DNA of 64,000 nucleotides from an uncultured Thermoplasmata archaeon (GCA_963735185.1 CAVTJV010000007.1:200566-264565); one strand, 5' to 3'; positions 50,706 to 55,498 are shown, numbered from the stretch's first letter. Numbers and translations are program-made. Notes: generated from the sequence alone by a model not told the origin.

Positions 50706-50714
50706 CTTGACCGC
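50706..50714. repeat. Left target-site duplication CTTGACCGC
   Basis: Identical to 55490-55498; abuts the left inverted repeat. Confidence 0.88.
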
Positions 50715-50736
50715 GGTTCTGCTTTAATTCGTCCGG
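50715..50736 (+). repeat. Left terminal inverted repeat
   Basis: First 10 bp and the inner TCGTCCGG match the right end; a further AATCGTCCGG at 50765-50774. Confidence 0.85.
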
Positions 50737-50813
50737 CGGAGGCCCCATGAATAGGGACAATTCAAATCGTCCGGTGGGTGCCGGTGGGACCACCGACCGA
50801 TTCAAGTCAGGAA

Positions 50814-51825
50814 ATGCCGATGGGTATGGCGATGGGAGCGGGACAGAGACCAATCTATCTGGAGCCCATCCCAGAAATCCGAAGGAGGCTTCAGCTCTAC
50901 TACCTGACCCACCCGAGAGCACGATTCGCAGTTCAGATTGGAGGTACTCGCGGCGGTCTCCTTAGCGGTCCTCGCCTCCCTGTTCTCTGCCGTCCACCTG
51001 CCTCCGAATTACGTTCTTCCGGTGTATGTCGCAGCGGTAACAACGATCGCCCTGGCGGTGACCGTGATTAGCCTATTGGGGCTGAGAGGGCGGTTCACGG
51101 GACTGATCCCGGCGAACGACCCCGGCCACTACAAGCTTCCATACCTTCCAGAAGGGGCCGACCCCTCTAAGGCGGTCATCGGGCGGTTTAGAATACCCGG
51201 ATATCTGGTCTCCGGGACGTACCCAAAAGGCATCGCGGGAGACAACGCGCGGAGGGGGCAGTTCCAGTGGCAGTATCCGCCCGGTCAGAAGCAGACGTTT
51301 AGAACGCTCCAATTCAAATTCGGAGCGATAGCGGTACACGCCACCGGTCGTGATGCAAGGGAAGTCCGGGCCCATGCCAAGATTAGAGTGAGTCACGGGG
51401 TACTTGGGAGCGTTACACCCCATGAGTGGTGCCCTATCGGTCAACTGAACTGGTACTTCGAGTCTTGGGAGGAACGCTTGTGGGGCGATGAGAAACTAGT
51501 CGATGGCGTGCTCACCTACCCCACTCTTGACTACGTCTTCGACTCTCCGAGCCTCGGCTTGAACAAGTTCCTACACAATCCCGAAGTTACGATCCATAGG
51601 GACCAGGGCCACTACCTGCCGCTCTACTACATGCGCGAGGGCTGCTCCGAGGTGTTTCTCTGCGCACAAACCCAATCTCAGATTGCCGGCAGAAGCCCCG
51701 ATGACAACCCAGTTGACTTCGACATCGAACTAGTCATTTCGGCCCTAGATTTTCGGCAGCGGACACTCAAGCTCCACTGCACGGCAAAGTGGGACGTCCT
51801 CACTGTCGAGGTGGGAAAGTGGTAG
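50814..51825 (+). CDS. Transposon cargo: hypothetical protein with two N-terminal TM helices; apparent +1 frameshift at 50943
   Basis: Removing G50943 joins ...RARFAVQIG to VLAAVSLAVLASLF... of the 295-aa ORF; exact start uncertain. Confidence 0.65.
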
Positions 51826-51921
51826 CTTCACTCTGCGGCGGCCCGAATCTCGACCTTAGTCTTTCGACCGCGGGGCTATTCGCTCGCACGATCAACCTCC
51901 GCCGGCGATGAGGCTGTTCTA

Positions 51922-52266
51922 TCATTTCTTGTGATGGCTTCGTTTCTTGCCCTTCGCTGCCTTCGCCTTTTCCTTCTCCGAAACGCGTTTCTTGTAGGCC
52001 TCGGCCCTCTCCTGGGCCTCCCTCAGGGCGGCATCGGGGTCCTCTGTGATGTCAATCACGACCACCCTCTGCCAGCTAGGGTGAACTCGCAAGATACGGC
52101 AGGTCCCCTGGTCGACCAACTTTGGAAACTTCTCGACTCGACCGTACCCCTTCTCAGGGTAATCCCGGGATGCGGTAGTTCGCGCCAAGGCAATCCCGGC
52201 ACAATGAGTGGCCAGATATCTCAATCTGACGACGCGTGGGCCTAATGCGGGATGAACGCGGGCCAT
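51922..52266 (-). CDS. Transposon cargo: hypothetical protein with a Lys-rich C-terminus
   Basis: 114-aa ORF starting next to the repeat array; no motif recognised. Confidence 0.55.
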   Translation of the reverse strand: MARVHPALGPRVVRLRYLATHCAGIALARTTASRDYPEKGYGRVEKFPKLVDQGTCRILRVHPSWQRVVVIDITEDPDAALREAQERAEAYKKRVSEKEKAKAAKGKKRSHHKK

Positions 52267-52282
52267 TCGTCACGGAGGAGTA

Positions 52283-52420
52283 GTGCGCACTGGGTGCGCA
52301 CCAGTTCTCCTTTAACTTGCCAAGGGGTGCACTAAGTGTGCACTGAGTGCGCACTCGGTGCACACCAATTCTTCACGAACTTGCCAAAGGGGTGCACTAA
52401 GTGCGCACTAAGTGCACACA
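52283..52420. repeat. Array of GTGCRCAC-like boxes with 11-bp period inside a ~64-bp tandem duplication
   Basis: About nine GTGCGCAC/GTGCACAC/GTGCAC boxes in groups, separated twice by TTCT..AACTTGCCAA(A)GGG. Confidence 0.9.
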
Positions 52421-52496
52421 AATGTTACGTTTTTCATGGCACTCCATTCTAGCTTATGTACTAGGCGTGGGATTCCATGCCAAAGGTAGGGCCGAA

Positions 52497-53507: not shown

Positions 53508-53528
53508 CCCACTCCACCTACTCTATAC

Positions 53529-53597
53529 ATATGTTGCCTAATAAACCTTAGGCTCCGACACTTTTATTACCTCCGGTGCCTATATGTTACCTAAGGT
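53529..53597. promoter_or_regulatory. AT-rich divergent promoter with repeated operator-like boxes
   Basis: ATATGTTGCCTAA (53529) and ATATGTTACCTAA (53582) direct repeats; ACCTTAGG/CCTAAGGT inverted pair. Confidence 0.55.
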
Positions 53598-53605
53598 AGA
53601 GAGAT

Positions 53606-54778
53606 ATGACGTCAGAACCTTGGGTCGATGTGCGCACACCGGCCCTCGCCATCGTGGCCCGCGGCGACCAGATTGAGGAACGCTCCCCGTCTCAGTTCTC
53701 TGTCCGTTCACAAAGCCGGCCAGATGAAAAGTACACCGTAACTGTCAGTCGGAACCGGTGGTCCTGTACCTGCACATTCTCCTTGGAGGGTGGAGGGCGG
53801 ACATGCATACACATCCTAGCCGTCAAGTTCCGGGCAGGGTTTCAAGAGAAGTCTCCCGCTGAGACGGGACCGACTTGCGAGCGATGCCATTCCTCGGACG
53901 TGGTTCTTTCGGGTCGTCGTCTGAACAAGAGCGGGGCGGTGCGCCGGTTCCGGTGTAAGACGTGCGGCGCGTACTTCTCCGGGAAGGAGGGATTCCACAA
54001 GCGCCGCTCCGATCCCGACATGATCGCGAAGGCTCTCGACCTGTACTTCCGGGGAACCTCGCTCCGGCAGGTCGCGGAGCATTTTGCCCAAGCCTACAAC
54101 CTTCCGGTCTCGGACACGACCATCTATCGGTGGGTCACGCACTACTCGGCTCTTGCCGCCGAGTGGATGGAGTCGCAGAATGCGAAGGTCGGCGAGACTT
54201 GGCACGTCGATGAACGGGTCGTGAATGTCAACGGAGAGAACCACTACCTCTGGAACGTGATGGACTCTGAGACCCGGTATCTCCTTGCCTCAAGAATTAG
54301 CAAGGGGCGGGGCATTCCCGAGGCCCGGGCCGCGTTTCAGGATGCGAAGGCAACGACGGACGTTACGCCCCAAGAGATTCGTTCTGACGGCTACGCGAGC
54401 TACCCCGAGGCGATCAAGAAGGAGTTCGGGCACCGCCCGAAGCCCGGCGACCTGCTCTCGGACCCGAAAGCGAATCTCCGGACTTGGTACACGCCTCACA
54501 AGGTCGTGCCGAGCATCCGTGCGCCGGAGTCGAATAACATCCTCGAACGGCTGAACGGGACCTCGAAGGACCGGACAAAAACGATGCGGGCCTACGACAA
54601 CGACCGAGGCGCGTCGGCCCTATCGGTCGGTTGGCAGGTTCACTACAATCTCGTGAGGAATCACCTCGCACTCGGTACGACCCCGGGTGTCGCAGCGGGT
54701 CTGCCGGAACTCGGGCAATTCCGGTGGCGTGGGCTCCTCGACTTTGCCACTCGCCGAAACGAAAAGGGCATGGAGTGA
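53606..54778 (+). CDS. IS6-like DDE transposase with N-terminal SWIM zinc finger and zinc ribbon
   Basis: CTC...CIH (SWIM), CERC...CKTC, HTH (TTIYRWV), WHVDE, RSDG..SY, NNILERLNGT, HYNLVRNH. Confidence 0.9.
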   Translation: MTSEPWVDVRTPALAIVARGDQIEERSPSQFSVRSQSRPDEKYTVTVSRNRWSCTCTFSLEGGGRTCIHILAVKFRAGFQEKSPAETGPTCERCHSSDVVLSGRRLNKSGAVRRFRCKTCGAYFSGKEGFHKRRSDPDMIAKALDLYFRGTSLRQVAEHFAQAYNLPVSDTTIYRWVTHYSALAAEWMESQNAKVGETWHVDERVVNVNGENHYLWNVMDSETRYLLASRISKGRGIPEARAAFQDAKATTDVTPQEIRSDGYASYPEAIKKEFGHRPKPGDLLSDPKANLRTWYTPHKVVPSIRAPESNNILERLNGTSKDRTKTMRAYDNDRGASALSVGWQVHYNLVRNHLALGTTPGVAAGLPELGQFRWRGLLDFATRRNEKGME

Positions 54779-54832
54779 CGCATGCGGCTCTATGAATACG
54801 GAGGACGATATGCCGTCGCCACGGTCGACTCC

Positions 54833-55441
54833 ATGGCGTTATCCTTCCCTAAGACCAAGCAAAAAGTTGACCACGCACGGGCCCTTCTACGGACGCTCAG
54901 GGACTCCAAGAGCGCGCTGGACTTCGAGGCGAACTTCGCAGCAGTGATTAACGCCGAGCGTGCGATCTTCGATTCTCTACGGAGCGAGGGGGCTCACTTC
55001 CCCGGTTTTCGGAAGTGGCACGATCAGAAGGATGCAACTATGCGGTCGGATGAACTCCTTTCATTTGTTGACACGACGCGCATTGGGACCTTTCACAGGG
55101 GAGTGGGGTCAGAGCCGTTTGTCTGGCCGGCGGCGTATGTCAAGAAGTTCTCCTCAGGCGAGATGGGGCCGCCACCCGAGCCCGGCGCGGTATGGGGTGT
55201 GACGGCCAGAGGCATCGAATGGGTGGTGAACCATGGAAAGCCGAACGAATACCGAGTGCCTGTCCTCCAAGGAGGCGAATGGCAGGTAGCGGTCGGACTT
55301 CACGACGGCCCCAAAACCCACCTCGGGAAGGCCATCCCGAGTCCGGACCCGGTGGGCGTAGTCGAAACCGCCTTCAGGTGGTTCGAAGAGATCGTGGTTG
55401 AGGCCGAGACGAGATTCGGCGCCGCCAAACAGCCGAAATGA
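54833..55441 (+). CDS. Transposon cargo: putative HEPN-like domain protein
   Basis: Helical N-terminal domain ending in RIGTFH (Rx4H); family assignment by pattern only. Confidence 0.6.
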   Translation: MALSFPKTKQKVDHARALLRTLRDSKSALDFEANFAAVINAERAIFDSLRSEGAHFPGFRKWHDQKDATMRSDELLSFVDTTRIGTFHRGVGSEPFVWPAAYVKKFSSGEMGPPPEPGAVWGVTARGIEWVVNHGKPNEYRVPVLQGGEWQVAVGLHDGPKTHLGKAIPSPDPVGVVETAFRWFEEIVVEAETRFGAAKQPK

Positions 55442-55466
55442 AGCGACCTCGGAGCGAGAATCTTGA

Positions 55467-55489
55467 CCGGACGATTAGGAAGCAGAACC
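55467..55489 (-). repeat. Right terminal inverted repeat
   Basis: CCGGACGATTAGGAAGCAGAACC, the inverted counterpart of 50715-50736. Confidence 0.85.
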
Positions 55490-55498
55490 CTTGACCGC
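55490..55498. repeat. Right target-site duplication CTTGACCGC
   Basis: Identical to 50706-50714. Confidence 0.88.

Follow-up and report, generated by a model that had tools for sequence, protein, structure and literature searches.

Insertion sequences of the classical IS6 family are compact: they measure 0.7-0.9 kb, encode transposases of 211-254 aa and mostly create 8-bp target duplications, and one member, ISDsp3, is reported to carry a passenger gene (PMC7986276, PMC6807381). The ends of bacterial members share a consensus with GG at positions 1-2 and G at position 7, and Table 5 of the same source contains two archaeal entries of the family with a 9-bp duplication (PMC6807381). The elements TnGBS, ISLre2 and ISKra4 target sigma-A promoters, where they land 15-17 bp ahead of the -35 box and spare the gene; some of them carry large cargo, and most use one insertion orientation (PMC3942029). 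Here we describe an element that resembles each of these groups in part. It occupies positions 50715-55489 (4775 bp) of a 64,000-nucleotide stretch of DNA from an uncultured Thermoplasmata archaeon (GCA_963735185.1, CAVTJV010000007.1:200566-264565); this whole stretch is called the window. The element is very probably an autonomous DDE cargo transposon, which is mobile as a whole and inserts at a fixed register before promoters.

The element is like the members of the IS6/IS26 group (IS26, IS257, ISH14, ISPfu1) in that its DDE core has its best match, over the whole length, in the IS6 model, its ends begin with GGTTCTG and it has a single transposase gene. Unlike these, it is 4.8 kb long and contains five further open reading frames (ORFs) and a tRNA gene; it also differs by its 9-bp duplication, its 390-aa SWIM/zinc-ribbon transposase, its two-motif ends and its fixed promoter-proximal target. 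The initial annotation, made from the sequence, had already set the element apart from classical IS6 members (about 0.8 kb, no cargo, 8-bp duplications), a contrast borne out by the two sources, in which a single member has a passenger gene (PMC7986276, PMC6807381). Passenger genes lie within one pair of ends together with one transposase, as in a transporter insertion sequence. The closest functional match is the TnGBS/ISLre2/ISKra4 group, which likewise inserts upstream of a core promoter element and keeps a constant distance from it. That group is bacterial and Mutator-like; the family described here differs in its archaeal hosts, its IS6-like core, its use of the TATA box as the reference point and its insertion in either orientation. 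By its model matches the transposase is not of the Mutator-like (p-MULT 3 or 4) kind, IS6 being its best model. The element and its host setting comprise the following features:

48714..50618, minus strand: host dnaK (Hsp70), from the ORF call; the orthologue at locus L072 scores HSP70 at 5e-224
50693..50700, minus strand: dnaK TATA box, reading TTTTTATA towards dnaK; the same box stands at the same position before dnaK in 11 related loci
50706..50714, no strand: left target duplication, 9 bp, CTTGACCGC, from the sequence; a single copy in the empty-site contigs
50715..50736, plus strand: left terminal inverted repeat, GGTTCTGCTTTAATTCGTCCGG, from the end-to-end alignment; the ends of the family read GG(T/A)(T/A)CTG...
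50761..50782, plus strand: subterminal second copy of the inner end motif (AAATCGTCCGG), direct repeat D12; the two-copy layout is likewise found at the ends of relatives
53606..54778, plus strand: transposase of 390 aa with SWIM, zinc ribbon and DDE parts, from Pfam, NCBIfam and the family alignment
55467..55489, minus strand: right terminal inverted repeat, reverse complement GGTTCTGCTTCCTAATCGTCCGG, from the end-to-end alignment
55490..55498, no strand: right target duplication, 9 bp, CTTGACCGC, from the sequence and the empty-site contigs
55585..56400, minus strand: host ppk2-like gene, its 3' end towards the insertion, from the ORF call

The element is placed between the dnaK promoter and the 3' end of the ppk2-like gene. 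Its ends are GGTTCTGCTT-type inverted repeats, and the two flanking copies of CTTGACCGC form a perfect 9-bp match. The inverted ends, the identical duplication, the single SWIM/zinc-ribbon/DDE transposase, the passengers, the tRNA and a repeat array had all been named in the initial annotation, and all match the sequence. The left end and the reverse-complemented right end are identical over the first 10 bases, and 21 positions match if two small indels are allowed. Both ends open with GGTTCTG, thus with the initial GG and the G at position 7 of IS6 ends, and the last 60 bp of the element have 75% identity to the right end of the element in a related genome (G008). The inner end motif is present twice per end, with the second copy about 38 bp inward (AAATCGTCCGG at 50764-50774; CATTTCGGCTG on the reverse strand near 55430-55441); this subterminal copy is likely to be a second transposase-binding site. 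The G+C content is 0.59 within the element and 0.67 in the flanks, and the transposase is single-copy in its own genome. The dnaK TATA box begins 15 nt from the element boundary, a distance made up of the 9-bp duplication and 5 nt.

Mobility was assessed with contigs from four public soil-metagenome runs of one study, which were aligned to 50200-56000. Contigs from three of the four runs join 50704 to 55489 and skip 4784 bp (4775 + 9), that is the element and one copy of the duplication, which establishes that an empty dnaK-ppk2 site exists. The joint is ambiguous by 12 letters (the 9-mer and three chance matches). One empty-site contig, 1158 bp long, agrees with the window at every position of its two arms (505 and 512 nt). 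Pieces of the element occur in the same soil runs too, so both forms are present in that habitat. Contig word depths in X1 were 17.6 and 12.1 in the flanks, 13.6 at the joint and 3-5.5 in the interior, values that do not indicate what fraction of cells has the element. In this natural population the 4775 bp are either all there or all missing, in keeping with the first description, which saw in the locus a single mobile element with passenger genes and one IS6-related transposase. A recent insertion, for which that description had predicted an empty site with one CTTGACCGC, is supported by the same contigs. The empty site was also sought in relatives, as that description had suggested. The related genome G004 lacks the element and has dnaK next to ppk2 with a spacer of about 123 bp; CTTGACCGC was not found there, the intergenic DNA of the relatives having diverged.

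Two database proteins deserve mention here. The copy of ORF219 (P0001, 100% identity) and a relative of ORF176 (P0160, 91%), both cargo ORFs listed below, are each encoded on a contig of 4759 bp, a length near that of the element, as if the element assembled alone where its flanks vary.

The domain matches of the transposase show a SWIM finger at the N-terminus and a zinc ribbon, both fused to a catalytic core related to IS6. Pfam identified DDE_Tnp_IS240 (1.6e-14, above cut-off) and SWIM (5e-4), and the top NCBIfam model was IS6 (NF033587), which scored 119.3 bits over model positions 1-201 of 202. The transposase of a family relative (L067) reached 135.5 bits with this model, above the cut-off of 125. 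In all 21 aligned transposases of the family the SWIM residues C54, C56, C67 and H69, the zinc-ribbon residues C91, C94, C117 and C120 (CxxC...CxxC) and the catalytic D202, D262 and E314 are invariant. Among the other models, IS256 scored 39.6 bits and ISH6 was weak (E 0.0041, NCBIfam), whereas Pfam Transposase_mut covered only residues 132-209 (4.8e-6). The NCBIfam library contains ISLre2 and ISKra4 models; neither was among the 10 NCBIfam matches of the transposase. A search of 1.84 billion representative proteins with the transposase returned 220 clusters at E<=1e-30 and 1071 at E<=1e-10, many of them full length at about 35% identity, which indicates that the wider transposase group is large.

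Of 401 genomes sampled from the class, 38 encode homologues of the transposase at E<=1e-20; among 180 genomes of the family the number is 44 at E<=1e-60. A genome with homologues has between one and three of them. At each locus GG(T/A)(T/A)CTG-type inverted ends flanked by direct repeats were sought. The first 23 loci yielded 14 complete elements and a second batch of 20 loci yielded nine more, with perfect duplications. The duplication is 9 bp long in 22 of these 23 close elements, and a perfect 8 bp in L067 (36% identity). Perfect 9-mers beside matching ends are not expected by chance, since we estimate their probability at about 0.003 per locus for the pairs tested. The delimited family elements range from 1994 to 9561 bp, and their cargo, which the initial annotation had proposed to compare, varies across the 23. 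To judge from its ends and transposase, the window element is a member of a Thermoplasmata family that carries 1-8 kb of variable genes between its ends. Closer ends in homologues had been named beforehand as evidence against the boundaries given here. Such ends exist: the right end is located 35-100 bp past the transposase gene in L051, L052, L055, L060 and L021. Other relatives have cargo on both sides of the gene, like the window element, and the two layouts together show that the ends in the window are right and that the cargo is variable. A left-end-like match in genome G007 (L015 5613) was dropped because no partner end was found.

The flanks of the elements follow a common rule. On one flank, read outward, the duplicated 9-mer is followed by 5 nt and then by a TATA box, TTTAWATA. 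At least 7 of the 8 positions from +15 to +22 on one flank were A/T in 14 of 14 elements of the first set; the same holds for 0.22% of random positions of the window's own genome, and for 5.6% of positions shifted from the true sites by no more than 60 nt. The rule had been noticed in this first set, and for this reason it was tested out of sample on the nine new elements, of which eight obeyed. In the 21 rule-obeying elements with 9-bp duplications the consensus of the box is TTTAWATA, as for archaeal TATA boxes in general. The last base of the duplication (position 9) is always G or C in these 21, and bases two and three of the spacer are mostly A. The rule was also obeyed, at 7/8 or better, by 8 of 10 delimited distant relatives (25-35% identity; from 17 loci; some without the SWIM part). 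At L058, a locus that could not otherwise be delimited, the right end alone fits it.

In 11 related loci, several of them element-free, the TATA box of dnaK is equally far from the start codon, and the box therefore belongs to the host. (Of the 12 dnaK upstream regions compared, one, L009, is from the unpublished genome G019, and none of the conclusions depends on it.) Counted from the first T of the TATA box, the staggered cut of 9 bp extends over positions -14 to -6. This places it just upstream of the expected TFB recognition element (BRE), leaving the promoter whole; as read from the flanks, the BRE, the TATA box and the gene stay intact after insertion. The left end faces the promoter in eight elements and the right end in 14. 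Judged by these registers, the family inserts at a fixed position before archaeal promoters, with either end facing the promoter.

Target genes were taken to be those reading away from the TATA side of each element. The promoters are:

dnaK promoter: the window element, G008, L072
thermosome promoter: L054, L073, and L053 by promoter sequence
hsp20 promoter: L052
ftsZ promoter: L055, L060, L076, L079, L084
smc promoter: L056, L057, L064, L070, L080, L086, and additionally the window's own genome
promoter of a CopG-type ribbon-helix-helix gene: L062, L065, L078
promoter of an unnamed secreted protein: L067

In a maximum-likelihood tree of the 23 transposases, the seven elements at chaperone promoters and L074 fall on one side of a 100/100 branch and all 14 elements at cell-division promoters on the other, where the five ftsZ elements form a 100/100 clade of their own. 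In this tree target choice follows transposase phylogeny: the clade of the window element is found at chaperone promoters and its sister group at ftsZ, smc and the CopG-like gene. The pattern is a clustering and not a cause, because relatives share their labels. Where one promoter is occupied in several genomes, the duplications differ from genome to genome, as at dnaK (CTTGACCGC, CTGGACGAC, CAGTTCGAG), and the two copies are identical within each element; these differences, and the occurrence of both orientations, point to separate insertion events at the same base.

Elements are often found side by side. The TATA-distal flank starts with the tip of another element, right after the duplication, in 10 of 22 elements. 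At L060 three copies of one 9-mer are present: the first precedes a 2.75-kb partner that lacks a transposase, the next separates the two elements, and the last follows the second element. A duplicated 9-mer beside the TATA box is again a perfect target, so that elements pile up in arrays; with the target refreshed in this way, the youngest element should adjoin the promoter.

Further observations concern the target sites. In the window's own genome (contig C7, about 1542718-1544505, minus strand) the smc promoter carries an element of this kind that is 1778 bp long and lacks a transposase. CGAGCAAGC flanks it on both sides (the 9-mer twice), its register relative to the TATA box is as in the other elements, the end of a further element immediately precedes it, and it contains one 512-aa ORF with a signal-like start. 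In the G008 bin, L003 2510-2540 and L014 7740-7783 share 107 identical bases of the dnaK promoter and diverge exactly at the duplicated 9-mer. Both arms of this fork begin with GGGCTTTG..., resembling the ends (GGCTTTGCTAAC) of the distant member L113, and a second type of element may use the same dnaK site in G008. The fork (contigs C6 and C7) was considered as a clean empty allele and rejected, as the C6 arm starts with GGGCTTTG... like the end of another element type. A motif, GTCNGACAA(A/C), is located 45-60 nt downstream of the TATA box in smc, ftsZ and CopG-like promoters in several families of the class (L056, L057, L060, L062, L064, L070, L076, L078-L080, L084, L086, L106, L111, L113, L115); chaperone promoters are without it. 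From this distribution, GTCNGACAA(A/C) may mark a cell-division regulon.

Two ways of setting the register were compared. We favour capture of the promoter through bent DNA bound by TBP and TFB over direct read-out of the sequence, and rate it at roughly even: the transpososome would capture the TBP/TFB-bound DNA, possibly via a particular TBP or TFB paralogue or a factor of the regulon. Capture is favoured because the accepted boxes are diverse and the rule holds down to 25% transposase identity, which is like the specificity of TBP itself. The clade-by-regulon pattern would need a further determinant, for which paralogue-specific complexes and an element-encoded reader are candidates. The window's own genome encodes two TBP (C7, 1422744-1423265 and 1470133-1470654) and three TFB paralogues (88984-89532, 334422-334967 and 1584917-1585444), which makes paralogue-specific complexes one candidate determinant. 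A predicted complex of transposase residues 1-130 with the TBP and TFB core of this genome had a score of 0.01, which was counted neither way. The more specific proposal, in which the family would be the archaeal equivalent of Ty3-type targeting, with the transposase docking on the basal transcription complex and the clades recognising different TBP/TFB paralogues or regulon factors (heat-shock versus cell-division), is put forward tentatively, as less likely than not. The chemistry would be a putative IS6-like copy-in followed by resolution, which would yield a single copy with a duplication (PMC7986276).

The same element and the same target rule would also be explained if the SWIM/zinc-ribbon part or the AbrB-like protein encoded beside the transposase read the sequence or shape of the TATA/BRE region directly. 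We hold this to be quite possible, though somewhat short of even. The target class tracks transposase phylogeny, as expected of a determinant encoded by the element; a small DNA-binding gene is present beside the transposase gene in 14 of 23 elements; and in bacteria, insertion upstream of promoters accompanies a sequence signature of the transposase (PMC3942029). The boxes accepted are, however, varied (TTTTTATA, TATAAATA, ATTAAATA, TTTAAGTA, TCTATATA), the rule holds among transposases of 25-35% identity, and it is obeyed also by elements without the SWIM part, whose matches begin at about residue 80-90.

The true transposon could instead be a unit of about 2.4 kb extending from 53066 (GGTTCTACTTAACTCCGACG) to 55489, with the left 2.35 kb being adjacent DNA or a dead partner element, picked up on a single occasion. 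The sequence at 53066 matches the left end at about 15 of 22 positions, the G008 element has a similar one (L014 8144, 18/22), relatives of 2.0-2.6 kb exist, and tandem arrays could fuse. The polymorphism in the soil population nevertheless removes exactly 50715-55489 and one copy of the duplication; neither a right end nor CTTGACCGC precedes 53066, hence there is no array junction; and the outer left end has the two-motif layout typical of the family. The shorter unit thus appears improbable, and on the same grounds, that neither a right end nor a duplication is found before 53066, we rejected the idea that the window element consists of two fused array members. The internal left-end-like sequences themselves (53066-53085 in the window, L014 8144-8165 in the G008 relative) may be vestiges of earlier ends or extra binding sites.

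Insertion could also be untargeted, with only the copies just before promoters of essential genes surviving selection. Archaeal genomes are gene-dense, insertions into genes are costly and all surviving copies are intergenic, as this explanation would have it, but selection cannot set a register of one base: 5.6% of positions within 60 nt fit the rule, compared with the 14/14 and 8/9 observed. The repeated use of the same 9-mer, which gives rise to arrays, likewise speaks for targeting, and we regard untargeted insertion as very unlikely. An integrase-type island that uses a tRNA gene as its attachment site, with the transposase as a mere passenger, is suggested by the tRNA gene inside the element and the resemblance of its parts to two host tRNAs, yet it can practically be dismissed, as no integrase is found among the ORFs of the window element, the tRNA is internal, the element is bounded by inverted repeats and by a 9-bp duplication that is not tRNA sequence, 22 relatives without the tRNA share the same ends, and the empty-site joint contradicts it.

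Several points weigh against an autonomous, promoter-measuring cargo transposon. Ends could not be delimited at 9 of 23, 11 of 20 and 7 of 17 loci (L051, L058, L059, L061, L063, L066, L068, L069, L018 and L021; 11 of L071-L090; 7 of L100-L115 plus L068), and the sample is therefore the part of the family with clean ends. Every genome is a metagenome bin. The score of 119.3 bits puts the window transposase just under the NCBIfam IS6 cut-off of 125. A cointegrate or circle junction was not seen in the contigs of the soil runs, which cannot exclude one, and the 'empty' arm in G008 matches the other flank of the element for only 8 nt. L074, one of the nine out-of-sample elements, has no TATA-like motif at the expected place; in the distant set L112 scores 6/8 and L102 (one of the 10) fails, and half of the distant genomes are A+T-rich, which makes the rule weak evidence in them. 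Several sites are the same promoter in related genomes, so that the sites represent about nine distinct promoters, not 22. Contact with TBP/TFB and an IS6-like chemistry of transposition are both hypothetical.

The remaining features of the element are its cargo, its accessory gene and its tRNA:

50938..51825, plus strand: cargo ORF of 295 aa (ORF295), two N-terminal membrane helices followed by a beta-rich domain; AF2 mean pLDDT 71.7
51922..52266, minus strand: ORF of 114 aa (ORF114), gene status uncertain; from the ORF call
52282..52419, no strand: repeat array of the GTGCGCAC type, two 64-bp units with GTGCRCAC-type palindromes phased at 11 bp; repeats D1-D3 and I1-I9
52401..52931, plus strand: cargo ORF of 176 aa (ORF176), true start perhaps further in; three database matches
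53158..53247, plus strand: tRNA of 90 nt with a long variable arm, anticodon UAU; ARAGORN, and Rfam tRNA at 53.9 bits
53307..53507, minus strand: AbrB/MazE-like DNA-binding protein of 66 aa, divergent from the transposase gene; from models below cut-off
54782..55441, plus strand: cargo ORF of 219 aa (ORF219), N-terminal half helical; two database matches

The initial annotation had taken the cargo for a defence or toxin-antitoxin cassette. The relatives support this with SIR2, methylase-Mrr, PIN and BrxD-like proteins, but the four cargo ORFs of the window (ORF295, ORF114, ORF176 and ORF219) have no match in Pfam, PADLOC or NCBIfam; in PADLOC, none of the five window ORFs matched at E<=0.01. 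ORF295 has six homologues, one of them at the same place in element L052; no fold match in PDB was found at E<=0.001, and a protein-atlas look-up gave nothing above 0.89. ORF114 has no homologue among 179 other genomes of the family. The repeat array between the divergent ORF114 and ORF176 looks like a candidate operator or iteron region. The three database matches of ORF176 include one of 91% and one of 44% identity. ORF219 is no more than a candidate for a HEPN domain, which would have a four-helix fold and a catalytic R-x4-6-H: R100-x4-H105 is conserved in both sequences aligned, its model is poor (AF2 mean pLDDT 55.7), and it has no PDB fold match at E<=0.001. The protein-language features of ORF219 are nearest to lambda Ea47-like clusters (score 0.96, 22 of 30 hits), which is a lead only, Pfam giving nothing.

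The cargo of the relatives is more readily named. L014, the G008 relative, encodes a SIR2-like protein of 431 aa (Pfam 25.1 bits, cut-off 24.5; PADLOC SIR2 8e-10) and L070 a DNA methylase fused to an Mrr-type nuclease. Other methylases are present in L054 and L060, and one more, read by eye, in the cut-off L051. L054 also has an AAA_22/BrxD-like ATPase (a weak match), L055 a PIN protein, L060 a DUF5678 and aspartyl-protease pair, and L067 ParB. Such cargo would benefit the host or the element as defence or addiction genes, of the kind seen in these relatives.

The 66-aa protein, described as AbrB-like in the initial annotation and counted there as cargo, matches such models only below their cut-offs: Pfam MazE_antitoxin (9.7e-5, 22.7 bits, cut-off 24.7) and NCBIfam AbrB (TIGR01439; 7e-5, 22.4 bits, cut-off 28.3). 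A small gene recurs beside the transposase gene in 14 of 23 elements, encoding an MPKWK-type protein in 11 and the AbrB-like type of the window in three more. On account of this recurrence of a small divergent gene, we read it as probably an accessory gene or regulator rather than cargo.

The tRNA folds as a cloverleaf (z = -3.05). Its acceptor stem is that of the host tRNA-Leu(CAG), with a G as the base after the stem, and its anticodon arm is nearly the same as in a host CAU tRNA, with a U in place of C34. AUA accounts for 5 of 46 Ile codons in the ORFs of the element and for 240 of 9431 in long host ORFs, a usage that fits a helper role, should the tRNA carry isoleucine. A different 90-nt tRNA-like gene (ARAGORN, anticodon TCC) was observed at 1704-1793 of L051 (=L019), at the same place upstream of the transposase gene; among the relatives a tRNA-like gene was found in L051/L019 only, below the Rfam tRNA threshold.

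Other systems offer partial parallels. ISH6, an archaeal Mutator-like insertion sequence, duplicates an A+T-rich motif and may have a bias for promoter regions (PMC3942029). In the family described here, unlike ISH6, the 9-mer that is duplicated varies, and 5 nt separate it from the TATA box. Ty3 and other eukaryotic retroelements, which use integrases, integrate within a few bp of RNA polymerase III or II promoter sites via transcription factors, a 'safe haven' strategy for which tethering to TFIIIB is established by experiment. The likeness is in insertion within a few bp of a site set by the basal transcription machinery, tethering being a hypothesis in the present case. Tn7 is a cargo transposon that uses a harmless site by an essential gene, with a multi-protein machinery including a target selector and a 5-bp duplication. 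The window element shares the cargo and the harmless site next to an essential gene; unlike Tn7 it has one transposase and a 9-bp duplication.

DDE cargo transposons that measure from promoters are known, and what appears to be new here is the archaeal host and the IS6-like core. Full-text searches, with subscription journals and supplements outside their scope, brought up no archaeal transposon described as taking the TATA box as the reference for its insertion site. In a survey from 2026 that covers the insertion sequences of 17,237 archaeal genomes, the main text is without the words promoter, TATA, passenger and target site. The suggestion that the element represents an undescribed archaeal family has held up, with 23 delimited elements and no description found in the literature searched; the family is apparently undescribed.

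The family presents a testable mechanism of target selection in an RNA-polymerase-II-like system, with a one-base register and a clade-by-regulon pattern, and its landing just upstream of the promoter is a convergence with the bacterial TnGBS/ISLre2 elements. With one protein delivering cargo of up to about 8 kb to a harmless site that can be predicted, it is of practical interest for archaeal genetics. If the transposase does dock on initiation complexes, the elements would report which complex occupies which promoter, and would constitute a natural tool for safe-site insertion. For gene-dense archaea, the family provides a route by which defence and addiction genes spread without breaking genes, with the dnaK, thermosome, ftsZ and smc promoters serving as landing pads that collect arrays.

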